From: Verrucomicrobiia bacterium
GTDB lineage: Bacteria; Patescibacteriota; Saccharimonadia; Saccharimonadales; JAGQNK01
Direction: 5' to 3'
DNA: 64,000 bases
NCBI GenBank assembly: GCA_035489575.1
Contig: DATHJY010000011.1
Location: forward strand, 84,514 to 148,513
Of this stretch, positions 3,194-51,128 are shown piece after piece (the stretch's first letter is position 1; the number at the start of each line of letters is the position of its first letter). The notes below the pieces were generated by a model. It worked only from the letters and a program-made list of their open reading frames with translations, made no database searches and was not told the origin of the DNA. Position numbers and translations under genes: made by a program.

Positions 3194-3213
3194 GGTGTAT
3201 ACTGACTGACGAT

Positions 3214-31850: not shown

Positions 31851-31851
31851 C

Positions 31852-32406: not shown

Positions 32407-32440
32407 AACAAAAGAACATAACGCTTAAGATAGGATAATT

Positions 32441-34528: not shown

Positions 34529-34530
34529 CC

Positions 34531-34761: not shown

Positions 34762-34918
34762 GGGTAACTATCAAAATTCCAATCCACCCCGTTAGCACCT
34801 GCCCAAAGAGTCGCCCAAGCCTCTTTACAACTGGGGCGATATCAGATAAGATTATCCGGTAACTCGTGTGAGTTATCTATGCTCATGCAACTAATTAATT
34901 TTAAGGAGATCTACCTCT

Positions 34919-36103
<1,185 letters not shown>

Positions 36104-36152
36104 GTATCTCGCCCATTTGTCAGGGCGCATCGCGGGCAAAAACCTGCGACAG

Positions 36153-36187
36153 AAAAAGGAGCAGTACCATTTGTACAGCTCCTTTTT
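36153..36187 (+). terminator. Intrinsic terminator after tuf
   Basis: aaaaaggagc ... gctccttttt (10-bp stem, inner gtac/gtac). A-tract before and T-tract after, so potentially bidirectional. Confidence 0.65.
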
Positions 36188-36314
36188 CGTGCTCGGCCTT
36201 TGCTCCACGCTGCACTCCTGAAAATGCCCGAGCCATAGCGACTCACCCCAAAGATCCCTCAGCCAGAGAGAGTTTTCTTTTTGGTACATGCTTGGCGTAG
36301 AATTATTACATACT

Positions 36315-36734
36315 ATGAACGAAACCGGCGAAACGTCTGATAGCCCCGACCTCCTAGAGGTCAGTCCGCTCCCTATTCGCCGCAGGATTAGGCGCGCGCT
36401 GAGAGGTTCGGTGGAATTCTGCCCTCCTTGTCCCGCCAAAGGCTCGTGTGCGGGCAAAGTCACACCCCAGGTAGGAATTAGGCGGGCAAAAAACTCGTAT
36501 GACACCCCAGTAATACTTGCCGAGGTGATATTCACGGATAGAGATGGACTACGTAGTAAACCTAAAGTTGCTGGCATAGATCGGTTTGATGACGCCAAGT
36601 CCGAAGAGTTAGCATACCGACTCGAAAACCGAGTAGGTCGTTGTAACGGCCCCGCCGACGCTAACTGCCCAGCGCTTACCAACGACGCCATAAAACACTT
36701 AGCCGCAACCGTTATGGGTGACATAGACCAGTAG
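36315..36734 (+). CDS. Hypothetical Cys-containing protein between tuf and rpsJ
   Basis: Part of ORF 36288..36734 (MNETGETSD...CPPCPAKGSC...). No SD and an uncertain start. The opposite-strand 239-aa ORF was rejected. Confidence 0.35.
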   Translation: MNETGETSDSPDLLEVSPLPIRRRIRRALRGSVEFCPPCPAKGSCAGKVTPQVGIRRAKNSYDTPVILAEVIFTDRDGLRSKPKVAGIDRFDDAKSEELAYRLENRVGRCNGPADANCPALTNDAIKHLAATVMGDIDQ

Positions 36735-36860
36735 GCACCTTCCATTTCCGGCATAAATGTTGTAAAATCATATCTATAAACTAATTGTGATGACTAAAAG
36801 TCGTTGTGCATGCTCTCTTATAGCAGTTCAAAGATGTTACATCACCAAGGAGATAGTTCT

Positions 36861-37226
36861 ATGGCTGAAGCCAAGAAACCAGCAGCAAAGACTGCTGCTA
36901 AAAAAACCGAAGCACCCGCTGGCAAACAACGTATTCGTATTCGCCTAAAGGCCTACGACCATAAAGTAATCGACCAATCTGCCAAGCAGATCGTTGACAC
37001 CGCCCTGCGTACCGGCGCCACCATTGCCGGCCCGATCCCACTGCCTACCAAGAAGACGCTTTACACCGTTGTCAAAAGCCCGCACGTCTACAAAAAAGGA
37101 CGTGAGCAATTCGAGATGCGCGTACACAAACGCCTTATCGACGTCCTAGAGCCCACCCCCAAGACCATCGACAGCCTCATGAACTTGAGCCTGCCAGCTG
37201 GTTGCGACGCCGAAATTAAGATGTAA
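36861..37226 (+). CDS. rpsJ: 30S ribosomal protein uS10 (with Lys/Ala-rich N-terminal extension)
   Basis: ORF 36804..37226, trimmed to the ATG after [24 protein letters not shown]. Confidence 0.92.
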
Positions 37227-37263
37227 CATTCGTTGCATAAATAGTTATTTTATGCTATAATAT

Positions 37264-37292
37264 GTACCTCTGTGAATAGCAGAGGTACTTTT
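37264..37292 (+). terminator. Intrinsic terminator directly after rpsJ
   Basis: gtacctctg tgaatag cagaggtac followed by tttt. It separates rpsJ from rplC. Confidence 0.6.
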
Positions 37293-37321
37293 ATATGTCA
37301 GTACCAGAGAAGGGTGTTTGA

Positions 37322-37368
37322 TGCGAGGAGCAAGTCTTGCCGTTTGGCAGCAAGGCTTGCTCCTCGCA
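37322..37368 (+). other. Perfect 13-bp stem hairpin upstream of the high-GC ORF
   Basis: tgcgaggagcaag ... cttgctcctcgca with a structured 21-nt loop. It lies 42 nt before the GTG start at 37411. Confidence 0.5.
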
Positions 37369-37410
37369 TCGACCGCAACTTGTCCCATTCGACCAGACCA
37401 AGGAGGCCTT

Positions 37411-38040
37411 GTGCCTGCTACCTCCACCGTCCCCGACAGCGGTGAACTCCTGGACGGAGACTTCTGCTACGAACTCGTCCGACCGGGCTGCTACAACGTC
37501 TACAGCAACAACGCGGAGCTAGACCTCGGCAAGCTCTTCCCCCAAGGCTTCCACGGTGAAGTCAATCTTGGCATGGAAGGTGTGCACTGGGCAATCGGCG
37601 TCAAGCGTGAAGCTCGAAACCCGGCCCACCTCTGTGCCCAGATCCTGCCGGCTCACCGAGGCACCAGCATGCAGATCCTGACCAACGCCGCACGCGTCCT
37701 GCGCGAAGCGTTCTGGCCGACCGACCTCCCAGATCACACCCCCGTCCGGGCGACGAACGTTGCCGACCACAGGCGTGTGCCGCTGAACCTCGGCGAGGTC
37801 CAAGTGGGCATGAAGGTCTGCACCCGCGGCAGCATCCAAGTGCACGGCATCGTGGCCGAGATCGGACACGATGACGATGGCCGAGACGCCGTGTGCCTCT
37901 CCAGATCACCGTACATCGCCCACTTCGAGGACCCCCAGGGACGCAGGTGGTATTATGCCGACCTAATGGGGCTTGTCCCACGCCACGCCGGCACCAACCG
38001 TGCCCACTGGGACCCTCGCAGCTACACCCTTCCGGACTGA
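37411..38040 (+). CDS. High-GC hypothetical protein, family member 1 (shared C-terminal motif)
   Basis: Start is aAGGAGGccttGTG. Codon third positions are mostly G/C. C-terminus: YADLMGLVPRHAGTNRAHWDPRSYTLPD. The ORF-track start at 37318 would read through the upstream hairpin. Confidence 0.6.
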   Translation: MPATSTVPDSGELLDGDFCYELVRPGCYNVYSNNAELDLGKLFPQGFHGEVNLGMEGVHWAIGVKREARNPAHLCAQILPAHRGTSMQILTNAARVLREAFWPTDLPDHTPVRATNVADHRRVPLNLGEVQVGMKVCTRGSIQVHGIVAEIGHDDDGRDAVCLSRSPYIAHFEDPQGRRWYYADLMGLVPRHAGTNRAHWDPRSYTLPD

Positions 38041-38047
38041 CAGCGTG

Positions 38048-38092
38048 TCATCATGGTGGCCATCCACACCCTGGCTCTGGCCACCATGATGA
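38048..38092 (+). repeat. Conserved palindrome H1 (TCATCATGGTGGCCA / TGGCCACCATGATGA)
   Basis: 15-bp perfect stem with a 15-nt loop, starting 7 nt after the stop of 37411-38040. Confidence 0.8.
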
Positions 38093-38130
38093 CACAACAA
38101 TTTACTTATATGATCATGTACAATACGCTT

Positions 38131-38403
38131 ATGGCCTCAAAAACAAAAAAGAAACAAACCTCACAGGAATTAGACAGCATTTATATCCTCAAACTTGTGG
38201 TGTATCTGGTGCTTGGGTCGCTCTGGCTCAAAATAACCGACGGGCAAGACACTCAGATACCTATTCCTATCGGCTTTTTCATCGGCCTGGTATTTGCCAG
38301 TCATGACCACATTCAGCTGGATCGCAAGATTGGGTATGCCGTACTGCTCGTGGCCATGCTCATTGGCTTTTGGGCACCGTTTGGCGTCTACGTTGCCACA
38401 TAA
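38131..38403 (+). CDS. Small membrane protein
   Basis: Part of ORF 38053..38403. Start placed after the palindrome (MASKTKKKQTSQ...). Two or three hydrophobic helices. Start uncertain. Confidence 0.45.
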   Translation: MASKTKKKQTSQELDSIYILKLVVYLVLGSLWLKITDGQDTQIPIPIGFFIGLVFASHDHIQLDRKIGYAVLLVAMLIGFWAPFGVYVAT

Positions 38404-38597
38404 TTCGTAGTGGAATTATCAACACATTGACAGAGGTTAGCAAACTATGCTAATCTGTAGCGGTATATCAAAAGTTCCCGGACTTGGTGAGTGGCATAGG
38501 TCTGCCCCTAACAGAGGTAGAAACCAGCCAACACCAAGCGTTTTTGTGTCACGCATTCGTGACACTTAAGGGAATTAAATAACAAGTAAGGTTTGCT

Positions 38598-39212
38598 ATG
38601 AAAGCTCTTATCACCAGAAAGGTTGGCATGACCAGTACCATCGCAGAAGATGGCGTAGTTCAAGCCGTTACCTTGCTTTCCGCTAGTCCCTGTGTCATTA
38701 CGCAGGTGAAGACCGAGGAAACTGACGGCTATACAGCTGTTCAGCTCGGCACCGAAGAAAACAAAGCCATGGGCAAGGCCCAGGCTGGTCACTTCAAACC
38801 ATCAAAGGTACAGCCAAAGCTCGTGCGCGAATTCCGCATTGCAGAGGTTGATGAAAGTATCAAAGTCGGCGAGAGCATCTCGGCCGACATTTTTGAAGTT
38901 GGGGACATCGTAACTGTCACCGGCACCAGCAAAGGTAAAGGCTGGGCTGGTACCATCAAGCGTCACAACTTTCATCGGCAGCGCAAAACACACGGTGGCA
39001 AAGGCGATACCCGCAAGCCCGGTTCTATTGGCTCTATGTATCCGCAGCACATCCTGAAAGGCAAGAAAATGGCCGGACAGATGGGCGCAGAGCAAGTAAC
39101 TGTTCAGAATTTGCGGGTTGCTTTGGTAGACACCGACCTTGGTGTTATTGGTGTAACCGGCGCTGTTCCAGGCCCACGCAAGGGCATTGTCCTTATCAAG
39201 GAGGCAAAATAA
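38598..39212 (+). CDS. rplC: 50S ribosomal protein uL3
   Basis: 204 aa; KGKGWAGTIKRHNF. Confidence 0.95.
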   Translation: MKALITRKVGMTSTIAEDGVVQAVTLLSASPCVITQVKTEETDGYTAVQLGTEENKAMGKAQAGHFKPSKVQPKLVREFRIAEVDESIKVGESISADIFEVGDIVTVTGTSKGKGWAGTIKRHNFHRQRKTHGGKGDTRKPGSIGSMYPQHILKGKKMAGQMGAEQVTVQNLRVALVDTDLGVIGVTGAVPGPRKGIVLIKEAK

Positions 39213-39213
39213 G

Positions 39214-39852
39214 ATGGCTGTACCTACTTATACAAAAGCCGGTGCCAAGGCTTCTACTCCAGCCAAGCTCGACAAGGCTGTCTTTTCAGTGATGCCAGAG
39301 AACCATGAGCTCATTCAAGTAGCTTATGTAGCATACTTGGCAAACGGCCGCGGGAACTTGGCACAGACAAAGACTCGCGGTCTTGTTAGTGGTGGTGGTA
39401 AGAAACCATGGAAACAAAAGGGTACTGGCCGGGCTCGTTTTGGCTCAAGCCGTAACCCTATTTGGCGCGGTGGTGGTATCGCCTTTGGTCCTACTGGCCA
39501 AGAAAACTACAAGCAAAAACTGCATGTTACAGCAAAGCGTCTGGCCATCCGCCAGGCTCTCAGCCTGAAAGCAGATACCAGCGCTATTAAAGTTATCGAG
39601 ACTTTTGAGTGTAAGGATGGCACTGTTAAGCCAACCATCAAACTCCTGGAGAGGATCGAAGCAAAGGGCAATACCCTGATTGTCGTAAGCAATAAGGACA
39701 CCTTGGTCGAGCGCGCAACACGCAACCTCCAGAACGTCAAAGCTATACACGCCAAGTACCTGAATGTCTATGATGTCATAAACGCTGACACCATTGTAGT
39801 GAGCAAGAAAGCCCTCGACATCGTCCATGAGTGGCTGGGAGGTGATAAGTAA
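39214..39852 (+). CDS. rplD: 50S ribosomal protein uL4
   Basis: ORF 39187..39852, trimmed to the ATG after AAGGAGG. GTGRARFGS motif. Confidence 0.93.
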   Translation: MAVPTYTKAGAKASTPAKLDKAVFSVMPENHELIQVAYVAYLANGRGNLAQTKTRGLVSGGGKKPWKQKGTGRARFGSSRNPIWRGGGIAFGPTGQENYKQKLHVTAKRLAIRQALSLKADTSAIKVIETFECKDGTVKPTIKLLERIEAKGNTLIVVSNKDTLVERATRNLQNVKAIHAKYLNVYDVINADTIVVSKKALDIVHEWLGGDK

Positions 39853-40199
39853 TGGATAAGACTATGATTCTAAAACCTCGCATCAGCGAGAAAGCTTATG
39901 CCATGAGCCAAGACGGCAAAAGCGTCTACGTATTCGTAGTACCCAAAGAAACCAGCAAGCAAGCAATTGCTTCAGCTGTGGCTACTCAGTATGGCGTAAC
40001 CGTTACTGCCGTTAATACAACCGTCACTAAAGGCAAGGCAAAACGAACCGTCCGCAAGGGTGGTCGTGCTATTGCCGGCCGCACCAACACCATCAAGAAG
40101 GCCTACGTCACCCTGAAAACGGGCGACTCTATTGCCATCTTCAAGGCTACTGAAGACGAGAAGCCAGCTGCCAAGGCTGCCAAAAAGGAGAAGAAATAA
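39852..40199 (+). CDS. rplW: 50S ribosomal protein uL23
   Basis: 115 aa. TAATG-coupled to rplD. Operon position and sequence fit. Confidence 0.9.
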   Translation: MDKTMILKPRISEKAYAMSQDGKSVYVFVVPKETSKQAIASAVATQYGVTVTAVNTTVTKGKAKRTVRKGGRAIAGRTNTIKKAYVTLKTGDSIAIFKATEDEKPAAKAAKKEKK

Positions 40200-41053
40200 T
40201 GGCCATTAAAGCATACAAGCCTACCACTCCTGGTCAGCGCGGTATGACCACTCAGGACATGAGTGCTATTACCACCAAGAAGCCACTGAAGTCCTTGACA
40301 GTCATCAAGAAAAAGCATTCTGGCCGTAATAACCAGGGCCGTATTACTACTCGCCACCGCGGTGGTGGTGTCCGTAAGTTCTATCGCCTGATTAACTTCA
40401 ACCTGCCCGCAGGTACTACGGCAACTATCGAACATATCGAATACGACCCTAACCGCAGCGCTCGTATTGCGCGCGTCAAAGACCAAGACAACGTGTACCA
40501 CTATGTATTGGCTGCCAAGGATATGAAAGTTGGTCAAACCATTGCCAGTGGCGAAGAAATTGCCATCGAAAACGGCAACCGCCTACCGCTCAAAAACATT
40601 CCAGTTGGTAGCGTTATCCACGCCATCGAACTGCAACCTGGTCGTGGTGCCCAATTAGCCCGCAGCGCTGGCAACAGTGCCCAGCTGATGGCCAAAGAAG
40701 GAACTTACGCCCAGGTCAAATTGCCCTCTGGTGAAGTCCGTCTGGTCAACATTAACTGCACCGCCAGTTTAGGTGTTATTGGCAACGAACAACATCAGAA
40801 CATCAAGATTGGTAAAGCAGGACGCAATCGCCACAAGGGCAAGCGCCCAGGTGTGCGTGGTGTTGTTATGAACGCGGCCGATCACCCTCATGGTGGTGGT
40901 GATGGTGGCCGTCACGGCGTCGGTGGTGGTAAGAACCACGGTACAGCTCCCAAGACCCCTTGGGGCCAAAAGACCCTGGGCTTCAAGACCCGCCGCCGCA
41001 AGAGCACAACCAAGTTTATCTTAAAGAGCCGTCACGCGGCGAAGAGGAAATAA
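40199..41053 (+). CDS. rplB: 50S ribosomal protein uL2
   Basis: 284 aa; ADHPHGGGDGG. Confidence 0.96.
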   Translation: MAIKAYKPTTPGQRGMTTQDMSAITTKKPLKSLTVIKKKHSGRNNQGRITTRHRGGGVRKFYRLINFNLPAGTTATIEHIEYDPNRSARIARVKDQDNVYHYVLAAKDMKVGQTIASGEEIAIENGNRLPLKNIPVGSVIHAIELQPGRGAQLARSAGNSAQLMAKEGTYAQVKLPSGEVRLVNINCTASLGVIGNEQHQNIKIGKAGRNRHKGKRPGVRGVVMNAADHPHGGGDGGRHGVGGGKNHGTAPKTPWGQKTLGFKTRRRKSTTKFILKSRHAAKRK

Positions 41054-41065
41054 GGGAGTATATAG

Positions 41066-41341
41066 ATGAGTCGTTCACTCAAAAAAGGGCCATTCATAGA
41101 TCCCAAGCTCGCCAAGAAAGTGGCCGCACTGGGTAATGAAGACCGCACCATCATCAAGACATGGGCTCGTTCGAGCACCATCAGCCCAGACTTTGTTGGC
41201 CGTACTATTGCTGTACACAATGGCAAAGTTCATGTACCAGTATTCGTTACCGAAAACATGGTTGGTCACAAACTCGGCGAGTTTAGCCCAACCCGTAAAT
41301 TCCGCAGTCATGGCGGCAAGCTCGCGAAAGGCAAGAAGTAA
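41066..41341 (+). CDS. rpsS: 30S ribosomal protein uS19
   Basis: 91 aa; [10 protein letters not shown]. Confidence 0.95.
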
Positions 41342-41721
41342 TGGCAGTTACCGCTATCGCTAAAGGCGTTCGCATGAGCCCACGCAAAGTCGGTGTTGTA
41401 GCCGCTTTGGTTCGTGGCCGCACCGTAGCTGACGCGCTGACAATCCTTCAGCACACCCCTCGTCGCTCGGCATTGCCTGTCAAGAAAGTTATCGAAAGTG
41501 CCCGGGCTAACGCCGACCACAACCACAACTACAAGGCAGACACCTTGCAGATTGTGTCCATCCAGGTCAGCCCTGGCCCTCGTTTTAAACGGTACCGTCC
41601 CGCAGCTCATGGTCGCGCATTGCCATTCCAGCGACGCACCAGCCATATTCATGTAGTCGTCGATGGCGAGCAGCGAGCAGCCAAAAAGTCAGCATCATCT
41701 GCGAAAAAGGAGACAAAATAA
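41341..41721 (+). CDS. rplV: 50S ribosomal protein uL22
   Basis: 126 aa; TAATG-coupled; correct operon position. Confidence 0.92.
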   Translation: MAVTAIAKGVRMSPRKVGVVAALVRGRTVADALTILQHTPRRSALPVKKVIESARANADHNHNYKADTLQIVSIQVSPGPRFKRYRPAAHGRALPFQRRTSHIHVVVDGEQRAAKKSASSAKKETK

Positions 41722-42353
41722 TGGGACAGAAGGTAAATCCAATTAGCATGCGTCTTCAGGTCAATAAAGACTGGCGCAGCAAGTGGTTCGCTTCCAAGCG
41801 CGACTATGCAAAGTTCTTGGGCCAAGACCTCAAGATCCGCAAACTAATCCAAGACAAGGTCGGTTCACGTGGTGCTATCAACAAGGTAGACATCGAACGT
41901 TCGCCTAACCTGGTATCAGTCACTATCACCACCGCCAAGGCCGGTGTAGTTATCGGTCGCGGTGGCGCAGGCGCCCAGGAGCTCAAGGCAGCTATAGAGA
42001 AAATCTATGGTTTCCCGGCTCGTGTAAATATTGAAGAAATCAAAAAGCCAGAACTGTACGCCAAGCTCGTTGCCGAGAACATCGCCCACCAGTTGGAGCG
42101 CCGTATTGCTTTCCGGCGAGCCATGAAACAGTCCGCAGGCGCAACCATGCGCGCTGGTGCCAAAGGCATCCGTATTGAAATAGCCGGACGCCTCGGCGGT
42201 GCCGAAATGTCTCGCCGCGAGAAAACAGTCGAAGGCTCAGTGCCACTGCACACCCTTCGTGCTGATGTCGACTACCACGCAGCCCGTGCCAAGTATCCAG
42301 GTGCCGGTATTATCGGTATCAAGGTCTGGATCTACAAAGGGGAGGTTAATTAA
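41721..42353 (+). CDS. rpsC: 30S ribosomal protein uS3
   Basis: 210 aa; MGQKVNP..., KH domain, GRLGGAEMSR. Confidence 0.95.
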   Translation: MGQKVNPISMRLQVNKDWRSKWFASKRDYAKFLGQDLKIRKLIQDKVGSRGAINKVDIERSPNLVSVTITTAKAGVVIGRGGAGAQELKAAIEKIYGFPARVNIEEIKKPELYAKLVAENIAHQLERRIAFRRAMKQSAGATMRAGAKGIRIEIAGRLGGAEMSRREKTVEGSVPLHTLRADVDYHAARAKYPGAGIIGIKVWIYKGEVN

Positions 42354-42475
42354 TATGATTTCTTCTGTTGTTTTAAGGGAAAAGAGCAGCCAGAACGCGG
42401 ATTCATTCCGCGTCCTGCGCGATGAGAAAAACCGCAAGGTTTGTCTCATGGCTTGCAAAGGGGAGGTAAACTAAT
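42354..42475 (+). repeat. Junction-insertion element copy 2 (core 42376-42449)
   Basis: Core identical to copy 1 apart from the nested insertion. Flanking 23-nt direct repeat CAAAGGGGAGGT(T/A)AA(T/C)TAATATG at 42335-42357 and 42456-42478 (21 of 23). Confidence 0.85.
42355..42474 (+). CDS. Mini-ORF 2 (39 aa: [39 protein letters not shown])
   Basis: ATG 1 nt after the rpsC stop; TAA 1 nt before the rplP ATG. Corresponds to the tail of ORF-track entry 42199..42474. Confidence 0.45.
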
Positions 42476-42889
42476 ATGCTTATCCCGAACCGAACCAAAC
42501 ACCGTAAGGTGTTCAAGGGCCGCGTTCGCGGACCCGCCACCACTGGCAATCATATTGCCTTTGGTCAGTTTGCCCTGCAAGCCCAAGGTCACGAGCGCAT
42601 CACCAGTCGTCAGATCGAGTCCGCTCGTCAGGCAATGACCCGCTACGTGAAACGTGGTGGTAAAATCTGGATTCGTATCTTCCCACACACACCTGTCAGC
42701 CGCAAGGCGCTCGGTACCAAGATGGGTAGCGGCAAAGGTAACCCAGAATTCTTCGTAGCCAAAGTCCGTCCCGGCACCATTATGTTCGAGATGCAAGGTG
42801 TGCCAGAAGAAACTGCACGCGAGGCAATGCGCCTGGCTGCCCACAAACTCCCTGTCAAGACCAAATTCTTGGTGAAGGAGGATGTTTAA
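42476..42889 (+). CDS. rplP: 50S ribosomal protein uL16
   Basis: 137 aa; [16 protein letters not shown]. Confidence 0.95.
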
Positions 42890-42890
42890 G

Positions 42891-43094
42891 ATGCAAAAAA
42901 TGACTGAAATTCGTAAATTATCAACCACAGAGCTAGCAAACGGAAGTACTAAGCTCCGTGAAGAAATCGCCGAACTAAAGCGCGGTCTTCACATGGGCGA
43001 AGTCACCAACGTCAAAGTCGTGCGCACAAAGCGCAAAGAACTGGCACGTATGCTGACCGTTCTGAGTGAGCAGCTCGCAAAGGAGACAAAATAA
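42891..43094 (+). CDS. rpmC: 50S ribosomal protein uL29
   Basis: ORF 42882..43094. The ATG at 42891 has better SD spacing (GAAGGAGG), but 42882 or 42900 remain possible. Confidence 0.85.
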   Translation: MQKMTEIRKLSTTELANGSTKLREEIAELKRGLHMGEVTNVKVVRTKRKELARMLTVLSEQLAKETK

Positions 43095-43210
43095 TGAGTT
43101 TTTCCATGGTCCTCAGGGAAAAGAGCAGCCAGAATGCGGATTTATTCCGCATGCTGCGCGATGAGAAAAACCGCAAGGTTTGTCTCATTACCCCGAAGGG
43201 GGCAAAATAA
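43094..43210 (+). CDS. Mini-ORF 3 (38 aa: [38 protein letters not shown])
   Basis: The ATG overlaps the rpmC stop (TAATG). The TAA overlaps the rpsQ ATG (TAATG). Confidence 0.45.
   Translation: MSFSMVLREKSSQNADLFRMLRDEKNRKVCLITPKGAK
43095..43209 (+). repeat. Junction-insertion element copy 3 (core 43115-43188)
   Basis: The core carries a compensatory variant of hairpin A (ATGCGGA tttat TCCGCAT). Flanking repeat at 43078-43096 and 43194-43212 (16 of 19). Confidence 0.85.
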
Positions 43211-43539
43211 TGGCACGTACATTAGTGGGTGTGGTTGCGTCTGACAAAGCCGACAAGACAATTGTTGTCCGGGTTGATACCAGAAAGACCCATCCGGTTT
43301 ATAAGAAGCAGTACACCACCAGCAAGAAGTTTATGGCTCACGACGAGCAAAACGAGGCACACACAGGTGACCGTGTTGAGATTTCCGAAACCCGTCCCCT
43401 GAGTGCTCGCAAACGTCACACGCTCAAGCGAGTGATCGAGCACGCCGCCATTCAGCACGTCGAAACCGTCGACAAAGCAGTAGCAGAAGTGACTGGCACC
43501 AAAGAAAAAGAAGAAACGGAAGCCGAGGAGAAGAAGTAA
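43210..43539 (+). CDS. rpsQ: 30S ribosomal protein uS17 (Glu/Lys-rich C-terminal extension)
   Basis: ORF 43180..43539, trimmed to [20 protein letters not shown]. Confidence 0.92.
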
Positions 43540-43907
43540 TGATTCAGCAAGAATCTCGCCTCAGTGTCTGTGATAACAGCGGTGCCAAGGAAATCCTATG
43601 CATCCGCGTACTGGGCGGCACCCGTCGGCGCTACGCCCGTGTAGGCGATGTTATTGTGGCTACCGTCAAACAAGCCAGTCCAACTGGTACCGTCAAAAAG
43701 AAGTCAGTTATCCGTGCAGTTGTTGTACGCACCAAGGACACCATTCGTCGCAAGGATGGCTCGACCATTAAGTTTGACGATAATGCAGCTGTTATTATCG
43801 GTGACGATAAAAACCCCAAGGCTACCCGTATCTTTGGCCCAGTCCCACGCGAACTGCGTGACCAAGGCTATGCCAAGATCATCAGCCTAGCACCGGAGGT
43901 CCTATAA
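43539..43907 (+). CDS. rplN: 50S ribosomal protein uL14
   Basis: 122 aa; [18 protein letters not shown]. Confidence 0.96.
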
Positions 43908-44233
43908 TGAGTGATCAGATCTATAAAATTCGCCTAAAGAAAGGCGACACTGTCGTCGTTCGTGCAGGCAAATATAAGGGCAAGTCCGGCAAGATTACTG
44001 CCGTACACCCTAGCCTCAACAAAGTGACCGTTGAGGGTATCAATATCGTCAAGAAACACCAGAAGCCAAACCGAGCTCACCCTCAGGGCGGCATCCTGGA
44101 AATCACCAAGCCTATAGATGTCAGCAAGGTTGGCATCAGTGACGGCGGCAAGCCCTCACGTATTGGCTACAAAGTCGACAAAGACGGTAAAAAGACTCGC
44201 ATCGCCAAGAAGTCTGGGAAGGAGATCAAATAA
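43907..44233 (+). CDS. rplX: 50S ribosomal protein uL24
   Basis: 108 aa; [16 protein letters not shown] (KOW motif). Confidence 0.93.
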
Positions 44234-44820
44234 TGGCTGAAGCAAAAACCGCTACAAAAGCGCCAGCAACTGCTGCACGCCTGAAAGCTCTGTACACCAG
44301 CAAGTTCGCCGACGAGCTACAGAAGGAGCTTGAGCTCCCTAACCGCAACCAGGTTCCAAAATTGGAAAAGATTGTTCTGAACGTTGGACTTGGCAAAGCC
44401 AAGGACGACAAAAAGATCATGGAAGTTGCCGCCAATACACTTCGCAAGATCACCGGCCAGCAACCCATAGAGACTGTTGCCAAGAATTCTATCGCCGGTT
44501 TCAAGCTGCGCGAAGGCAACAAGATCGGCCTAAAAGTTACATTACGCGGTAACTATATGTACGAATTCATGGATCGCCTGATTAACATTGTGCTACCACG
44601 TTTTCGTGACTTCCACGGCGTTAAGACCACTGCCTTTGACAAGTCCGGCAACTTTAGCCTGGGCCTCACCGACCAATCAGTCTTTCCTGAGCTTACCTTT
44701 GAAGAGACAACAACCGTCCATGGCATGCAAGTGGTATTTGTAATCACCTGCCAAGAACCCGCACATGCCCGTGCATTGCTAGAAAAGTTTGGTATGCCCT
44801 TTCAGAAAGGAGCTAAGTAA
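44233..44820 (+). CDS. rplE: 50S ribosomal protein uL5
   Basis: 195 aa; correct operon position and conserved blocks. Confidence 0.94.
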
Positions 44821-45089
44821 TGGCTAAGAAATCTATGATTGCCCGCGATTTGAAGCGCCAAAAGATGGCAGATCGCTTTGCAGCCAAGCGAGCCGAATTG
44901 AAAAAGGTTGGCGACCGCGACGGTCTGCATAATCTGCCGCGCAACAGTTCGCCCACACGGCGCAAGAACCGGTGTGTCGAAACCGGCCGGCCGCGTGGCT
45001 TTATGCGCCAATTCGGCCTGAGCCGCATTAGTTTCCGCGAACACGCAAGCAAGGGCGAAATCCCTGGTGTAACAAAATCAAGCTGGTAA
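44820..45089 (+). CDS. rpsN: 30S ribosomal protein uS14 (long, non-zinc type)
   Basis: 89 aa with C-terminal [21 protein letters not shown]. No CxxC pairs. Confidence 0.92.
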
Positions 45090-45106
45090 GAAAGGAGATA
45101 GCTTTC

Positions 45107-45508
45107 GTGAGTACTACATCAACCGACCCAATCGCAGACATGCTGTCTCGCATTCGTAACGCTATTGCTGTTAGCAAGAGCGAGATCAGCATGCCACACA
45201 GCAAAGTTAAAGAATCTGTTGCCAAGCTGCTAAAAGACAATCGCTACGTAGATAGCGTTAACGTCGAAGACGCACGTGTTGGCAAAACACTAAAAATTAC
45301 CATCAACGGCCCGCAAAAGAACTCCCGGATCACCGAGATCAAGCGCATGAGTACCCCTGGCCGTCGTTACTACGCCAGCGCAGACCAGATCCCAACGGTC
45401 AAGCGTGGCCGTGGCGTTGTCATCATTAGCACTTCCAAGGGCATGATGACTGGCGCCGAAGCCAAGAAGCAAGGTGTTGGTGGTGAATTAATTTGTAAGA
45501 TTTACTAA
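45107..45508 (+). CDS. rpsH: 30S ribosomal protein uS8
   Basis: 133 aa with a GTG start after AAGGAG. DPIADMLSRIRNA. Confidence 0.94.
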   Translation: MSTTSTDPIADMLSRIRNAIAVSKSEISMPHSKVKESVAKLLKDNRYVDSVNVEDARVGKTLKITINGPQKNSRITEIKRMSTPGRRYYASADQIPTVKRGRGVVIISTSKGMMTGAEAKKQGVGGELICKIY

Positions 45509-45520
45509 AGGAACAAAGTA

Positions 45521-46060
45521 ATGAGTCGTATAGGAAAACTGCCCATCGATATACCGAGCGGCGTGACAATCACTGTCGACCCTGACTGGATTACTGTAGC
45601 GGGGAGCAAAGGCACCCTCAAGCAGTTCACCATGCCGGGCGTGACAGTTAAACAAGAAGACAATCAAGTTGTCGTCACCCGCATAAATGACGAAGCGCCA
45701 AACCGTGCCAAGCACGGGCTGATGCGCACACTGGTTGCCAACATGATAGAAGGCGTCAGCAAAGGCTTTGAGAAAAAGCTAGAGCTAAACGGCGTCGGCT
45801 TCCGTGTAGCGTTGGCTGGTCCTGGTCTGAAGTTCAATATTGGTTTCTCGCACGAGGTCAATTACGCACTGCCACAGGGCGTATCCGCCAAAGTAGAAAG
45901 TAATATTATTACAGTGTCTGGCATAGACAAACAACAGGTCGGCCAAGTCGCCGCTGAGATTCGTGCCCTCAAGAAGCCAGAACCCTACAAGGGCAAAGGT
46001 ATTAAGTACGTTGGCGAGCGGATTATCCGTAAGTCAGGTAAGTCAGGTAAGGACAAGTAG
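45521..46060 (+). CDS. rplF: 50S ribosomal protein uL6
   Basis: 179 aa; MSRIGKLPI. Confidence 0.94.
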   Translation: MSRIGKLPIDIPSGVTITVDPDWITVAGSKGTLKQFTMPGVTVKQEDNQVVVTRINDEAPNRAKHGLMRTLVANMIEGVSKGFEKKLELNGVGFRVALAGPGLKFNIGFSHEVNYALPQGVSAKVESNIITVSGIDKQQVGQVAAEIRALKKPEPYKGKGIKYVGERIIRKSGKSGKDK

Positions 46061-46061
46061 T

Positions 46062-46418
46062 ATGAACAGAATAACTCATAAGATCCAGAATCTTTCCCGC
46101 CGACGCAATCGTGTTCGTTCAACCGTGTCCGGCACTGCTGAACGTCCTCGCCTGAGCGTGCACGTCAGCAACAAGCACGTGAGTGCACAGATTATTGACG
46201 ATACCGCTCACAAAACCATTGCGCAGATCAGTACGGTTGGCCAAAAGGATGCCCTGGGCACCATGACCGAGCGCGCTACCTGGGTTGGTACCCAAATTGC
46301 AAAAAAGGCTAAGACTGCCAAAGTTCGTCAGGTCGTATTCGACCGCGGTGGCCGTCTGTACCATGGCCGCATAAAGGCCCTGGCTGACGCAGCCCGCGCC
46401 GGAGGATTGGAGTTCTAA
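46062..46418 (+). CDS. rplR: 50S ribosomal protein uL18
   Basis: ORF 45963..46418, trimmed to the ATG 1 nt after the rplF stop (MNRITHKIQNLSRRRNRVRS). Confidence 0.92.
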   Translation: MNRITHKIQNLSRRRNRVRSTVSGTAERPRLSVHVSNKHVSAQIIDDTAHKTIAQISTVGQKDALGTMTERATWVGTQIAKKAKTAKVRQVVFDRGGRLYHGRIKALADAARAGGLEF

Positions 46419-46419
46419 T

Positions 46420-46980
46420 ATGGCAGACCAAAGAGAACAACGAAGAGGCCGGCACGACAACCGACCGCCGCAAGAAGAAAAACAGTTCGACGAGCGCGTT
46501 GTAAACATCGACCGTGTTGCCCGTGTGGTTAAGGGCGGTCGCCGCTTCCGATTCCGCGCGCTGGTTGTCCTTGGCGACCACAAGGGTAGGGTAGGCATTG
46601 GCATCTCAAAGGGTGCTGACGTGACTACAGCCGTTGCCAAGGCCGTAGAAGTAGCCAAGAAGAGTATGGTGACCATCCATATGTACAACGACACTATCCC
46701 GCACGAGGCCGAGACGAAAGTCAGTGGTGCTCGTATCCTCATTAAGCCAGCCGCTCCTGGTACTGGTCTGATTGCAGGCGGTGTTGTTCGTACCGTGCTG
46801 GAAGTAACTGGTATCAAGAATGCATTGTCCAAGTCACTTGGCTCAAGCAACAAAATCAATATTGCCTACGCCACCCTAGCTGCACTGCAAAGTGTTGTGC
46901 CTGCTGACAAGTGGGTGACGAATCAGGGCGAGAAGAAAACCTCCACGAAAAAGTCCGTAGCCAAGGAGAGCGTAAAATGA
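46420..46980 (+). CDS. rpsE: 30S ribosomal protein uS5
   Basis: 186 aa; VVKGGRRFRFRALVVLGD. Confidence 0.95.
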   Translation: MADQREQRRGRHDNRPPQEEKQFDERVVNIDRVARVVKGGRRFRFRALVVLGDHKGRVGIGISKGADVTTAVAKAVEVAKKSMVTIHMYNDTIPHEAETKVSGARILIKPAAPGTGLIAGGVVRTVLEVTGIKNALSKSLGSSNKINIAYATLAALQSVVPADKWVTNQGEKKTSTKKSVAKESVK

Positions 46981-47084
46981 AAGTAAGGGAAAAGAGCAGC
47001 CGGAGCGGGCGAATTTATTTCGCCGCCCCGCGCGATGAGAAAAACCGCAAGGTTTGTCTCATCACAGCTGTGGAGGCCAAATAA
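46977..47084 (+). CDS. Mini-ORF 4 (35 aa: [35 protein letters not shown])
   Basis: The ATG overlaps the rpsE stop (ATGA). TAA at 47082-47084 directly abuts the rplO ATG at 47085. Confidence 0.4.
   Translation: MKVREKSSRSGRIYFAAPRDEKNRKVCLITAVEAK
46981..47084 (+). repeat. Junction-insertion element copy 4 (core 46986-47062; most diverged)
   Basis: Same 5' block (AGGGAAAAGAGCAGCC) and hairpin B. Hairpin A is replaced by a different but still complementary sequence (CGG a GCGGGCGAA tttat TTCGCCGC c CCG). Confidence 0.8.
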
Positions 47085-47558
47085 ATGAAGTACAACGAAT
47101 TAAACCTAACCAAAAAGCGCAGCCCCAAGCGAGTGGGACGCGGCATCGCAGCTGGACAGGGTAAGACTGCCGGTCGGGGAACCAAGGGCCAAGGCGCTCG
47201 CAAGAGCGGTGGTGTTCGCCCCGGATTTGAAGGTGGCCAGACACCCCTTACTAAGCGACTGCCTAAGTTGCCTGGCTTTACGTCTCACCGACCAAAGGTC
47301 GAGAACGTCTATACCGGCCAACTCGAAGCTTTTGCGGGCAAAACCGCTGACAACTTTACGGTCGCAGAAGCTGGCTTAACCACCAGCCCCTACGTCAAAG
47401 TAAAGCTGATAGTCCAGGGCGACATTACCAAGAAAGTTACCGTCAAACTCCAGGGTGCCAGCGAGAGCGCCATTGCAGCCGTCCAAAAAGCCGGTGGTAG
47501 CTTTGACAAAGTGCCGCAAGTAAAACGTCAGCCAAAAGAAAAGCCAGAAACCAAGTAG
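47085..47558 (+). CDS. rplO: 50S ribosomal protein uL15
   Basis: 157 aa; GRGIAAGQGKTAGRGTKGQ. No bL30 gene between rpsE and rplO. Confidence 0.94.
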   Translation: MKYNELNLTKKRSPKRVGRGIAAGQGKTAGRGTKGQGARKSGGVRPGFEGGQTPLTKRLPKLPGFTSHRPKVENVYTGQLEAFAGKTADNFTVAEAGLTTSPYVKVKLIVQGDITKKVTVKLQGASESAIAAVQKAGGSFDKVPQVKRQPKEKPETK

Positions 47559-47581
47559 CCCACCGTGGGCTGCTAGAGAGA

Positions 47582-47609
47582 AAAAGTCACTCGTTCACGG
47601 GTGACTTTT
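47582..47609 (+). terminator. Intrinsic-terminator-like hairpin after rplO
   Basis: aaaagtcac tcgttcacgg gtgactttt. Confidence 0.55.
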
Positions 47610-47625
47610 GTTATAGTAGGGGCGA

Positions 47626-49461
47626 ATGAGCAATAAGACCCAAAAAAAGCGCGACAAACATATTACGCGCGAGATACATCGTTTGTTCTGGAGGCACACC
47701 CTCAACAACCCGCTTCGGCTTGTTCTGGGTATGTCCGGACGATTCCCGGCTTTTATGACAACACACCTCTTGATGCCGCTGGTTGTTGCCAACGCCCTGC
47801 AGGCCATCATCGAGAGGCAATTTGACAGTATTACTGGCTATGCGTACCAGCTGCTTCTACTGGCAGCCATCTTCTCGGTCCTGTGGGCCATCAGTAACTA
47901 CCTGGTTATTGGAACAGTTGCCAGGGCTGGCAGGAACATACAAAGAGAAGTATTTGCCAACTTCCTACACAAAGATTATGACTTTTATGCCAATACCTAT
48001 TTTGGCGCATTGGGCGATCAAGCCTCGCGTCTGCGCGAAGCATTTATCGGTGACTACTGCGGCGTTTTCCTTTTGGCCGTTCCTAAGCAACTGGTAGTCA
48101 TAGTCGGAGGGATTGTGGTGATTGCAACCAAATCACCACTTCTAGCGCTCGTAACGCTGGGAGCTATGGCGTCAGTATTAGGATTTACCATGCTTACCAG
48201 CAGTATGCGTATAAAGTGGCGCCGAAAGGTCAGCGAAGAAAGTAGCGCTATCGCTGCCAAACTTGGTGATGCGCTAACACAAGCGCCGGCCGTAAAAAGC
48301 TTTGCCTCAGAAGATTACGAAAGTAAAAGGCTTGATCACAACCTTAACCTCTGGGAACGTGCTCAGTTTACTGCATGGATGTCCTCTGTACCCGCAGATG
48401 CCGGACGTTATTTCTTGGTTGCTCTTGCCACAGCCATTCTGCTGGTTATGACCGGTCGTATGTACCGGGATGGTGCTATATCGATTGCCATCGTCGCTCT
48501 TGTGCAACTATACGTCGTAAAAATGGTTGCAGCCACGATTGATATCAATGACATTATCAAATCTTATGAATCTGCTGTAGGTGGTGCATACCAGCCTATA
48601 AAAACCATGCTGATACAGCCTACCATCGTAGACAGCGCAAAGCCGGATAAGTTACCAAGACGAGCCAAATACCCCGTTACCCTTCAGTCCGTGTCATATA
48701 AATATGACAATACAGCCAAAGACGCAGTAGCGGTGCGTGATTTTACATTAGACATTGCCCCTGGCGAGAAAGTAGGGCTGGTTGGCTTTTCTGGCAGCGG
48801 CAAAACAACACTGACCAAACTGCTACTTCGATTCATGGACATCACGAGCGGCAGCATTGCCATAGCCGGCAAAGACATTCGGTCTATCGCCCAAAAAGAC
48901 CTACGTCGCCATATATCATACGTACCACAGGAACCGTTACTGTTCCACCGAAGCATTGCCGAAAACATTGCCTACAGCAAACCTACTGCTAGCAATAAAG
49001 AGCTAAAACACGCCGCTAAAATGGCCTACGTCACGGAGTTCATAGAAGAGCTGCCCGAGCGGTACAACACCTTAGTTGGCGAGCGGGGAGTCAAATTGTC
49101 TGGTGGCCAACGCCAGCGCGTGGCCATAGCCCGTGCCATTCTAAAAGACGCCCCCATCCTGGTCCTGGACGAAGCCACCAGTGCTCTAGACAGTCGCAGT
49201 GAACAACTCATTCAAAAAGCTCTATGGAGTCTTATGGAAGACCGGACCGCCTTAGTGATCGCTCACCGGCTCAGCACCATTCAGCGCATGGACCGCATTG
49301 TGGTTATGGATAAGGGCAAGGTGGTCCAAGTTGGTACGCACAGGGAACTCCTAAGAGACAAGAAGGGCATATATGCCGAATTGTGGGCACACCAAAGCGG
49401 TGGCTACATTGGGGTACCGGCTGAACCAGAGGATGATGTAGGTGCCATATCTGTTGCATAG
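47626..49461 (+). CDS. ABC transporter, fused permease/ATPase (MsbA-like exporter)
   Basis: 611 aa. Six-helix TMD, Walker A GFSGSGKTT, signature LSGGQRQR, Walker B ILVLDEATS. Confidence 0.88.
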   Translation: MSNKTQKKRDKHITREIHRLFWRHTLNNPLRLVLGMSGRFPAFMTTHLLMPLVVANALQAIIERQFDSITGYAYQLLLLAAIFSVLWAISNYLVIGTVARAGRNIQREVFANFLHKDYDFYANTYFGALGDQASRLREAFIGDYCGVFLLAVPKQLVVIVGGIVVIATKSPLLALVTLGAMASVLGFTMLTSSMRIKWRRKVSEESSAIAAKLGDALTQAPAVKSFASEDYESKRLDHNLNLWERAQFTAWMSSVPADAGRYFLVALATAILLVMTGRMYRDGAISIAIVALVQLYVVKMVAATIDINDIIKSYESAVGGAYQPIKTMLIQPTIVDSAKPDKLPRRAKYPVTLQSVSYKYDNTAKDAVAVRDFTLDIAPGEKVGLVGFSGSGKTTLTKLLLRFMDITSGSIAIAGKDIRSIAQKDLRRHISYVPQEPLLFHRSIAENIAYSKPTASNKELKHAAKMAYVTEFIEELPERYNTLVGERGVKLSGGQRQRVAIARAILKDAPILVLDEATSALDSRSEQLIQKALWSLMEDRTALVIAHRLSTIQRMDRIVVMDKGKVVQVGTHRELLRDKKGIYAELWAHQSGGYIGVPAEPEDDVGAISVA

Positions 49462-49565
49462 AGCCCACCTCATGGTAATTTTTGAGACTGAAAGCTGATG
49501 ATTTTTAAGCGAAACCAGCAAAAAATGGCAGTTTTCTGGCCAAAATATTGCCTTGGGGTGGGCTC
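49461..49565. repeat. Long-range inverted repeat between the ABC transporter gene and secY
   Basis: gagcccacctcatgg (49461-49475) pairs with ccttggggtgggctc (49551-49565) over 15 positions (1 mismatch, 1 G-U), enclosing about 75 nt of AT-rich sequence. Confidence 0.45.
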
Positions 49566-49631
49566 CGAATAACACGTCATGTATACTGGAGTGAGTTTAC
49601 ACAAAACAACCGGAGAATCTTTGGGAAACAC

Positions 49632-51128
49632 ATGAACTGGAAGCTTATTTGGAAGTCACTTAAAAACAGCGATATGCGTAACCGCGTGTTGGCAGTGCTT
49701 GGCATGTTATTAATATTTCGCGTCCTTGCTCATATTCCGATTCCTTTGAGCGACCCTGAAACCCTTAAACAAGTTCTAGAGAATCTCTTTAGCTCTAAAG
49801 ATACCCCCGAACTCCTTAGTTTTATAGATGTTTTGTCTGGAGGAGCTTTGGCTAATTTCTCCATTATGCTGATTGGCCTGGGGCCATACATCAACGCCAG
49901 TATCATCATGCAGCTCCTCACCAAGGCCATTCCGCAGCTAGAGACACTCAACAAAGAAGGTGAGTTTGGGCGTCGCAAAATTAACCAGTACACCCGCATC
50001 CTGACCCTGCCACTGGCTATCATTCAGTCTATTGGTGCCATCTATCTAGTCCGCCAGTCTGCGCTTCAGATTGGTGGCATCGGCGACATCACCGCCAATA
50101 CATCCATTACCCAATGGGTTTTGATGGTCGCAGCACTGACCGGTGGCGCCATGCTAGTGATGTGGCTAGGTGAACTCATCACCGAACAAAGTGTAGGAAA
50201 CGGTATCTCACTGGTCATTACCATTGGCATTGTCAGCCAGCTACCAACGACTATCACCAGCCTTGTTACTGGTATCTTCAGTGGCGCCAACAAGGTAAAC
50301 CTCTTTGGCTGGCAGTTCGCCGTAGACCGTCACAACGCCATTATTGGTGCAGTTTTGCTGATCACCACCGTTGTCATCACCGTACTGATCGTCAAACTTA
50401 ACGAAGCCTCGCGTAAAATCACCATCAACTATGCCAAGCGCATCCAGGGCAGCCGAGCTTACGGCGGCGTATCGACCATACTACCCGTCAAGCTCATTAC
50501 AGCTGGCGTGGTACCTATTATCTTTGCTGTCGCCTTCCTGAGTGTCCCAGCATTTGCTGGGCAGCTCCTGACCAGCGCAGGTAGCGCTCGGCTGCAGTCA
50601 ATTGGCACCAACCTGGCCGCCTGGTTCCAGACACCTAGTCCGCAGACCTTCCTACAGGAAGGCATTACGCCCTATATTTATCCCATTACTTACTTTGTCT
50701 TGGTCTTTATGTTCACGTTCTTTTATACAAGCATCACCTTCAACAGTAAGGAAATTGCCGAGAACTTACAGAAGCAAGGTGGGTTTATCGAAGGGGTTCG
50801 CCAAGGTAACTCAACAGAGAAGTATCTGGCCAAAGTCCTAAATCGCCTGACGCTCTTTGGGGCAATTGCCCTTGGTTTCCTAGCACTTATTCCAATCATC
50901 GGACAAGTTTTCCTAGAGACCAATATCGCCCTCGGTGGCACCAGCATCTTGATTCTAGTGTCTGTAGCCCTTGAAACGCTGCGCCAGATAGAATCACGTG
51001 CTCTTATGGTCACATACGACCAGTATGAACAACCCGACTTCTTCTATGATCAAGACCAACCCGCCCTGGCTGCTACTGGTGCACGACGCCTTCGTTTTCT
51101 GCCGGGCCGTAAGAAGTCAAATAAATAA
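49632..51128 (+). CDS. secY: Preprotein translocase subunit SecY
   Basis: ORF 49548..51128, trimmed to MNWKLIWKSLKNSDMRNRVL. Ten TM segments expected. Confidence 0.93.
   Translation: MNWKLIWKSLKNSDMRNRVLAVLGMLLIFRVLAHIPIPLSDPETLKQVLENLFSSKDTPELLSFIDVLSGGALANFSIMLIGLGPYINASIIMQLLTKAIPQLETLNKEGEFGRRKINQYTRILTLPLAIIQSIGAIYLVRQSALQIGGIGDITANTSITQWVLMVAALTGGAMLVMWLGELITEQSVGNGISLVITIGIVSQLPTTITSLVTGIFSGANKVNLFGWQFAVDRHNAIIGAVLLITTVVITVLIVKLNEASRKITINYAKRIQGSRAYGGVSTILPVKLITAGVVPIIFAVAFLSVPAFAGQLLTSAGSARLQSIGTNLAAWFQTPSPQTFLQEGITPYIYPITYFVLVFMFTFFYTSITFNSKEIAENLQKQGGFIEGVRQGNSTEKYLAKVLNRLTLFGAIALGFLALIPIIGQVFLETNIALGGTSILILVSVALETLRQIESRALMVTYDQYEQPDFFYDQDQPALAATGARRLRFLPGRKKSNK

Follow-up and report, generated by a model that had tools for sequence, protein, structure and literature searches.

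A probable mobile structured RNA repeat at ribosomal-protein gene junctions and in tRNA leaders of Saccharimonadia

The 64,000-nt stretch analysed here (the window; positions 84,514 to 148,513 of contig DATHJY010000011.1, assembly GCA_035489575.1) carries the str/S10/spc/alpha ribosomal-protein cluster of a bacterium in the candidate phyla radiation (CPR), in which a 120-nt insert with two RNA hairpins, A and B, separates rpsC (end 42353) from rplP (start 42476). These hairpins probably belong to a non-autonomous mobile structured repeat of the Saccharimonadia (TM7), which would be accommodated at operon junctions by a small relay open reading frame (ORF). The element forms a multi-copy family across the Saccharimonadia, with several copies per genome, and this family is undescribed, found neither in Rfam 15 nor in the papers searched. 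An earlier note on this DNA had described the hairpins, suggested that they are maintained by compensatory substitutions and listed possible roles for them; its claims are taken up below where the evidence bears on them.

The folded core and its covariation

The core of about 80 nt consists of a purine block (GGGAAAAGAGCAGCC), hairpin A, the linker CGCG and hairpin B. Four copies (c1 to c4) lie in the window, where a 26-nt hairpin-B core has four occurrences compared with 0.00 expected and all four copy regions outfold their shuffles (z −3.1 to −3.8). The coordinates and sequences of both hairpins in all four copies, as given in the earlier note, proved exact on re-reading and alignment, and the 36-nt insertion that it had seen splitting hairpin B of the first copy was found, in frame, at 31287–31322. 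The copies and their parts are as follows.

31220–31369, + strand: copy c1, with a 49-aa mini-ORF, between rpsL and rpsG; covariance-model match at 31237–31350
31253–31279, + strand: hairpin A of c1
31287–31322, + strand: extra hairpin of c1, an in-frame 36-nt insert that splits hairpin B
31205–31220 and 31354–31369: flanks of c1, a perfect 16-bp duplication (GAAGGAGAGCAAGTAA)
42355–42474, + strand: copy c2, element plus 39-aa mini-ORF, between rpsC and rplP; covariance-model score 97.2 bits at 42375–42452; the mini-ORF begins at the ATG in TAATATG just past the rpsC stop and ends at the stop in TAATATG at the rplP start
42391–42417, + strand: hairpin A of c2, with 3 bp, an A.C mismatch, 7 bp and the loop UUCAU (CAG a ACGCGGA ttcat TCCGCGT c CTG)
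42422–42449, + strand: hairpin B of c2, with 12 positions including the conserved A.G mismatch and the loop GCAA (ATGAGAAAAACC GCAA GGTTTGTCTCAT; as RNA, AUGAGAAAAACC GCAA GGUUUGUCUCAU)
42335–42357, + strand: upstream copy of the duplicated rpsC/rplP junction, with Shine–Dalgarno (SD) sequence, stop and ATG (CAAAGGGGAGGTTAATTAATATG)
42456–42478, + strand: downstream copy of that junction, which gives rplP its SD and start codon and the mini-ORF its KGEVN* end
43094–43210, + strand: copy c3, with a 38-aa mini-ORF, between rpmC and rpsQ; hairpin A at 43130–43156, hairpin B at 43161–43188, and a tail hairpin CCCC GAAG GGGG that spans the downstream SD
46977–47084, + strand: copy c4, between rpsE and rplO, with its ATG overlapping the rpsE stop (ATGA); covariance-model score 85.6 bits; hairpin A with a divergent stem at 47001–47030, hairpin B at 47035–47062

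Around c1, c2 and c3 the local SD/stop/start junction is clearly duplicated; in c2 the duplication covers 26 nt and has 88% identity with 42456–42481. Length changes among the copies are in frame (36 nt in c1, +3 nt in c4).

Hairpin A varies in both sequence and length; near its base, a conserved non-canonical position (A.C, A.A or C.C) is kept between covarying pairs. In the window, c1 and c2 have the same hairpin A and c3 is one compensated pair away; two relatives from elsewhere add the variants CAGAGUUUGGA/UCCAAACUCUG and CCG a GUGCCGA/UCGGUAC c CGG. The compensatory substitutions claimed for this hairpin were borne out by larger alignments (45 and 70 copies), which exceeded both shuffled and slid controls. 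Among 45 gap-free members, nine of the ten pairs had changed on both sides with 98% of cells paired, and the covariation score was 0.47 against 0.12 in shuffles, a value reached by 0 of 500; sliding the partner strand lowered pairing to 32–50%. An alignment of 70 copies, which leans towards structure because it was fitted to the covariance model, had double changes at 17 of 21 pairs and 98.1% of cells paired (again 0/500 shuffles). Paired cells contained G.U more often than A.C (25 vs 7), which favours the sense strand as the folding strand. We caution that covariation across the copies of a mobile family can reflect the diversification of active lineages instead of constraint at each site.

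For hairpin B, the earlier claim held in part: the stem and its A/G mismatch are kept, but the GNRA loop is not conserved, and because the hairpin is invariant within the window, the window itself gives no compensatory evidence for it. Among 107 distinct copies not selected on hairpin B, each of its pairs was a consensus pair in 81–100% and the A.G mismatch was kept in 98; the loop was GUA in 60 and mostly four bases long in the others, so the GNRA loop seen in the window is not a feature of the family. In the 70-copy alignment hairpin B covaried at 8 of 11 pairs, with only 1–6 sequences per pair, and divergent copies outside the search patterns showed further compensation (closing A-U to U-A; AAACC/GGUUU to ACCCC/GGGGU; G-C/A-U to A-U/G-C). 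Support for a structured RNA is strong from hairpin A and weak from hairpin B.

Many untranslated, fuller copies have an additional 5' hairpin, P0, of which the purine block is the 3' strand; at least four P0 pairs are present in 32–38% of copies compared with 9–21% in controls, and P0 also appears in predicted folds. The 5' block GGAAAAGAGCAGCC hardly varies, also among copies found through hairpin B alone. Inserts of 36–90 nt, in two recurrent classes, sit at a single fixed position of hairpin B, in its 5' arm or loop: one class follows GCGCGATGA (loci L018, L021, L029, L036, L076 and L118), and the other consists of extra hairpins that interrupt hairpin B (L014, L028, L105 and L108), the c1 insert being apparently of the same class by eye. 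Hairpin B is replaced or remodelled in L036 and L063. A likeness of GTAGCTCAGGGAAAAGAGCAG to a tRNA D-arm, which would have suggested a tRNA-like fold, was present in few copies only and is better explained by the optional hairpin P0. The reverse complement of the invariant block found in all copies (42376–42391 in c2) is GGCUGCUCUUUUCCCU, and a similar sequence forms the 5' strand of P0 in fuller copies. It includes UGCUCUUU, which matches the start of Escherichia coli boxA; an antitermination boxA reading was set aside because the boxA-like sense falls on the minority strand.

Distribution and insertion signature

Metagenomes were scanned with anchors on the invariant blocks flanking hairpin A, and GTDB species genomes with a complementary anchor on hairpin B. 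The first scan yielded at least 119 contig stretches that carry the element and the second at least 120 matches; the genome matches listed came nearly all from metagenome-assembled genomes of Candidatus Saccharibacteria/Saccharimonadales, with complete genomes and one oral TM7 also among them. A search with nhmmer recovered 280 copies in 247 loci. Most copies were ascertained through exact matches to core blocks, which makes any comparison of core conservation between sense and antisense copies uninformative, and 22 unselected copies are visibly more divergent. At gathering score, no Rfam 15 family matched the element in the window or in 26 related loci that were scanned in full, and nothing meaningful up to E 10 was found on two ORF-embedded copies and one tRNA-leader copy. 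IMG/VR gave no match, so no phage carriage was seen there, and neither the core sequence nor the element was described in the papers reached by exact-sequence and keyword literature searches.

About 230 distinct copies were placed relative to genes. Fifty-eight lie directly upstream of a same-strand tRNA and two upstream of an opposite-strand tRNA. Since the gap to the tRNA is 3–12 nt in nearly all of them and host −10 boxes lie 20–45 nt upstream, such copies lie in pre-tRNA leaders; the variable distance of these −10 boxes also rules out an element-borne promoter, because it assigns the promoters to the host genes. tRNAs are patchily occupied, the element preceding 70 and being missing before 77, and the same tRNA type is found both ways. 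Other copies occupy the 23S–5S spacer or sit inside 23S rRNA genes, where those of L025, L050 and L057 fall in a variable region and that of L092 lies closer to the gene's 5' end. Further copies lie in 5' untranslated regions (UTRs), 15–30 nt before start codons, and the downstream genes include those for SSB, S18, L11, S10, L10, EF-Ts, RNase III, Jag/KhpB and ATP synthase gamma (confirmed with Pfam) and, by eye only, EF-Tu, GroEL and RpoC (from N-terminal sequences), PNPase, aminoacyl-tRNA synthetases, HrcA and others. Antisense copies, for which we relied on tRNA-anchored cases only because ORF calls misassigned the strand in some opposite/opposite cases, occur in the tRNA-Pro leader of four loci (L082, L088, L116 and L239) and between tRNAs. 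The 23S gene of L025 that has the element at 845–924 also contains a group I intron (RF00028, 63 bits) at 1796–2054. Many Saccharimonadia loci (for example L227, L162, L112, L240 and L171) show a recurrent CCYCTGTT motif directly after, and sometimes directly before, the −10 box of tRNA promoters.

Only about 39 of the copies are at ribosomal-protein junctions, spread over at least 17 different ones. That number, the emptiness of each such junction in most related genomes and the existence of antisense copies speak against the earlier suggestion of a junction device that sets ribosomal-protein stoichiometry. Another notion is that the element is an autoregulatory operator, an rRNA-mimic site for one ribosomal protein, as for S7 at rpsL–rpsG or S8 in the E. 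coli spc operon. The rpsL–rpsG junction is the site of the E. coli S7 operator, one copy does lie at that junction and the RNA is structured and conserved; but the same element is also found at the other junctions, within 23S rRNA and ahead of tRNAs and unrelated genes, it is missing from the same junctions in most relatives, and no Rfam ribosomal-protein leader matches it. We consider an operator very improbable, and the element's distribution comes close to refuting it.

Flanking sequences point to insertion. Exact flanking direct repeats of at least 10 nt were found for 38 of 217 copies, compared with 6 of 648 mismatched-flank controls, and the duplications are 10–50 bp long. Of the recent insertions seen, that at L165 (5296–5480) is the cleanest: there the 3' end (last 50 bp) of a 728-aa ORF, which looks by eye like a UvrD/PcrA-type helicase, is perfectly duplicated around the element, and the end of the gene is retained. 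At L170, a 48-bp duplication has a sequence resembling that of L165 and possibly marks an equivalent site. In an antisense insertion into the 5' end of tRNA-Pro (L082, 7038–7260), the duplication consists of the tRNA's first 16 nt; since the promoter of this host gene now lies beyond the antisense element, the pre-tRNA leader would carry the element's reverse complement. The filler between duplication and core measures from 1 to at least 27 nt on the 5' side and 0 to ~22 nt on the 3' side, and the element's ends are ragged. In the duplication-bounded L165 copy and in c2, no terminal inverted repeats were found, only the two internal hairpins. Tandem Repeats Finder found no tandem arrays of the element across 31000–47300, and throughout the loci each site holds a single copy.

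The sites also turn over. Every ribosomal-protein junction is filled in a few genomes and empty in most, with empty gaps of 3–40 nt. In the window nothing occupies the rplQ–rplM junction, one of two at which the peptide search described below found a relative. In the related genome L015, rpmC–rpsQ holds another subfamily and rpsE–rplO lacks the element, and the rpsL–rpsG duplications of the window and of L001 are each self-identical and mutually different. Within loci, 7 of 25 pairs of copies share at least 90% identity in hairpin A, compared with 22 of 3,000 pairs between loci. Duplications, patchy sites and genome-own hairpin A variants together argue for turnover and intragenomic spread, and not for one ancient fixed feature. 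These sequence patterns show that new copies arise by insertion, with 10–50 bp of the target duplicated.

Mini-ORFs at operon junctions

All 39 copies at ribosomal-protein junctions contain a read-through ORF of 34–49 aa. In most of them it starts with an ATG on or next to the upstream stop (TAATG-type), its stop overlaps or abuts the downstream ATG (likewise TAATG-type), and in 38 of the 39 it uses the frame AGG GAA AAG. The same frame is open in only 12 of 54 tRNA-leader copies, a difference which shows that the spacer, called translated in the earlier note, is kept translatable. Upkeep of the frame needs a hairpin A of mostly 25 or 28 nt (by reading) and a junction-copy period of 2 modulo 3, and because an open frame thus demands a fitting hairpin-A length and period, it is selected and not automatic.

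The intact ORFs, their in-frame indels (36 nt in c1, +3 nt in c4) and the fact that gene callers predicted them could suggest a gene for a small basic protein, a 34–49-aa peptide family that might, for example, be ribosome-associated, with the hairpins incidental. Against this, the nucleotides are equally conserved in untranslatable tRNA leaders, rRNA and antisense copies, conservation reaches third codon positions, and the peptides differ in the hairpin-A segment, and beyond it where length shifts the frame. A peptide search of 5.8 billion proteins returned five proteins only, none with a Pfam domain: the mini-ORFs of this genome and two others, one at rpsL–rpsG in a Logan contig and one at rplQ–rplM. 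The few peptide matches and the equal conservation of untranslated copies led us to reject this interpretation, which we hold to be scarcely credible. The peptide itself is not conserved and is not what selection acts on, since residues of hairpin A vary while its pairs covary, the second half is read in another frame in some copies and the core is conserved where it is untranslated. The earlier note had reached a similar view from c4, whose hairpin-A segment it correctly read as SRSGRIYFAAP, unlike the other copies; its argument that constraint on this segment is structural and not peptide-level is upheld by the equal conservation of the core in untranslated tRNA leaders and rRNA.

In predicted folds, the 3' tail of the element pairs with the downstream SD in 10 of the 39 junction copies, three of them in the window. 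Such a tail would make downstream initiation depend on ribosomes translating through the element. The frequent 3' terminus CAUUAC (for example at 43186–43191 of the window and in the tail of L003) is the exact complement of the commonest junction, the overlapping stop and start GUAAUG, and in the predicted folds of several junction copies this pairing covers the downstream start codon.

Mobile repeat or functional RNA

In the explanation that we favour, copies of a non-autonomous mobile repeat would persist only in places where a compact fold of about 100 nt of RNA does no harm: in pre-tRNA leaders, which RNase P removes, in rRNA spacers and surface helices, in 5' UTRs and at operon stop/start junctions. 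At a junction, the duplicated sequence would furnish the upstream stop with an ATG and the downstream ATG with a stop, and selection would hold the frame through the element open, so that ribosomes would translate through, melt the hairpins and terminate where re-initiation is needed. By analogy with mycobacterial interspersed repetitive units (MIRUs), this would amount to a relay of translational coupling, with the peptide as a by-product. The hairpins and the invariant core may be kept for recognition by mobilising machinery, because a compact fold keeps the insert inert, or for both reasons. Among the roles proposed in the earlier note, that of a recognition structure for a mobilising agent fits best, given the flanking duplications and patchy occupancy.

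Several points weigh against such a mobile repeat. No autonomous parent was found among copies searched for 5' and 3' halves parted by an ORF; this search gave only variants with 36–90-nt inserts or with a replaced hairpin B (L036 and L063), none of them gene-bearing. No mobilising gene was identified either, and no known transposase accounts for duplications so long and variable or for ends so ragged. In all copies sampled, including those at apparently shared sites such as tRNA-Lys leaders, the core hardly varies, which is unlike a purely selfish, decaying repeat; we note, however, that much of this apparent invariance is ascertainment, since unselected copies are more divergent. Finally, copies show a strong preference for the sense strand and for the transcribed side of promoters (58 same-strand vs 2 opposite-strand at tRNAs), and likewise a bias to genes of the translation apparatus and other highly expressed genes, a pattern that a functional RNA regulon would predict as well.

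Such a regulon is the alternative that we take most seriously, although we consider it unlikely. The element would then be a host-beneficial cis-acting RNA module, a tag shared by translation-apparatus transcripts (pre-tRNAs, rRNA, and mRNAs for ribosomal proteins, EF-Tu/Ts and RNA polymerase) that coordinates their processing, stability or expression; its fold would be recognised by an RNase, an RNA-binding protein or a ligand, or would cleave itself, and mobility would merely have spread it. About 40 nt that are invariant across a class-level clade, a covarying peripheral stem, conserved non-canonical positions and optional inserts at fixed sites would suit this interpretation, being together the usual signature of functional RNAs. 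So would the placement always on the transcribed side of the promoter and 3–12 nt before the tRNA 5' end, the pairing of the 3' tail with the downstream SD in 10/39 junction copies, and the enrichment of tool-confirmed host genes for tRNA, 5S/23S, S10, L10, L11, S18, EF-Ts, RNase III and Jag/KhpB, with EF-Tu, RpoC and GroEL added by N-terminal sequence only. Yet occupancy is patchy in every class of site, most genomes lacking the element at a given junction or tRNA, and further counter-evidence comes from copies within 23S rRNA helices and at the 3' end of the 728-aa helicase-like ORF (by eye), antisense copies in the tRNA-Pro leader and between tRNAs, and fresh duplications of up to 50 bp. 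Moreover, no Rfam family or ribozyme model matches up to E 10, and an unrelated second repeat family fills the same kind of junctions in L015.

A further, rather doubtful possibility is that the element, or a functional RNA tag, spreads through RNA in the manner of a short interspersed nuclear element (SINE). Through copying by a reverse transcriptase or some other recombination, its folded transcript would enter the cell's most abundant RNAs by template switching (pre-tRNAs, rRNA, and ribosomal-protein, EF-Tu and chaperone mRNAs), and the chimeric cDNA would replace the locus through homologous recombination. RNA-mediated spread would explain the restriction to the transcribed side, the ~95% sense orientation at tRNAs and the highly expressed targets, 23S rRNA included, together with the ragged ends, the 10–50-bp duplications, the lack of inverted repeats and a transposase, and the invariant RNA core.

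Among known systems, MIRUs come closest at operon junctions: according to the literature (Supply et al. 1997, summarised in PMC12548453), they are mobile, insert at start codons and contain a coupled internal ORF, which keeps the impact on the gene downstream minimal. Both are short intra-operon repeats with a small ORF that overlaps the flanking stop and start, as in the 39/39 junction copies and all four window copies. MIRUs, however, are usually tandem (variable-number tandem repeats) and confined to mycobacterial operon junctions, whereas the Saccharimonadia element is single-copy at each site, belongs to a different host phylum, has an invariant RNA-like core, covarying hairpins and 10–50-bp duplications, and also occupies tRNA leaders, rRNA and 5' UTRs. 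It resembles co-transcribed repeats of the miniature inverted-repeat transposable element (MITE) type (Correia/NEMIS of Neisseria, ERIC/IRU, RUP and BOX) in being non-coding, multi-copy, hairpin-forming, co-transcribed and patchy. Those repeats have terminal inverted repeats and short fixed target duplications (for example TA for Correia), while the element lacks terminal inverted repeats, has duplications of 10–50 bp that are not fixed and ends raggedly. At junctions, then, it appears to behave as a MIRU does and elsewhere as a co-transcribed MITE, yet it lacks what defines each: it forms no tandem arrays and has neither inverted repeats nor a short duplication of fixed length.

Other likenesses are more partial. 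Rickettsia palindromic elements are selfish palindromic repeats that are likewise tolerated in translated sequence by staying in frame, but their insertions fall within protein-coding genes, whose products then include them, whereas the Saccharimonadia element makes its own mini-ORF between genes and most of its copies are untranslated. Repetitive extragenic palindromic sequences and bacterial interspersed mosaic elements (REP/BIME) share the small size, extragenic hairpins within operons and conserved structure; REPs are ~35-nt palindromes without target duplication that are linked to a RAYT gene, and neither a RAYT gene nor REP architecture was seen with the element. Classical 23S intervening sequences sit in an rRNA helix and are cut out of the mature rRNA by RNase III, a fate that copies of the element inside 23S genes might share. 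The copies inside the 23S genes of L025, L050, L057 and L092 recall the short rRNA insertions of a survey of CPR and other bacteria, in which 64 of 66 insertions of Ca. Saccharibacteria were short (≤250 bp) and without intron or homing-endonuclease features, and which described no repeat family common to tRNA leaders and mRNAs (PMC11270868).

The family explains unannotated 'hypothetical' ORFs of 34–49 aa in ribosomal-protein operons and probably part of the short rRNA insertions known from Saccharibacteria, and the covariance model obtained here can be used to annotate both. Saccharibacteria have some of the most streamlined bacterial genomes, yet they carry a folded repeat of about 100 nt in several copies within essential transcription units. 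Where an insertion breaks an operon junction, the element offers a natural experiment on how translational coupling persists, and cultivable, genetically tractable Saccharibacteria exist (PMC10633639). Long variable duplications, the lack of inverted repeats and the sense-strand bias point to a mobilisation route not described for bacterial repeats.

The second junction element of L015, of about 115 nt (ATGAGTAAAATGCTACAGCATTTTAGGAGTGAGGAG...GGAGTGCGRAGT...ACTCCGCACTTC...CTGAAAGGAGC), fills six ribosomal-protein junctions there (340–540, 3060–3210, 3590–3745, 4300–4530, 6415–6565 and 8060–8205). It begins at an ATG on the upstream stop, carries its own SD and is absent from the window. L015 also has larger inserts, of 442 nt at rplB–rpsS (1350–1810) and 362 nt at rplE–rpsN (5790–6170), that look like small extra ORFs within the S10/spc operon.

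The window's cluster runs rpoC, rpsL, rpsG, fusA ... rplC to rplO, secY, infA, rpsM ... rplQ, rplM, rpsI, with L30 absent from it. The gap between rpsG and fusA is unusually long (590 nt, 31850–32441), and ORFs of 218, 240 and 116 aa without a Pfam match, whose status as genes is doubtful, lie in this gap and upstream of rplC (37318–38403). The adjacency of rplO and secY is broken by a terminator-like hairpin (~47575–47612) followed by a gene for a 611-aa ABC transporter (within 47559–49461) with the domains ABC_membrane and ABC_tran; secY follows at 49548–51128, its product being long at 526 aa.

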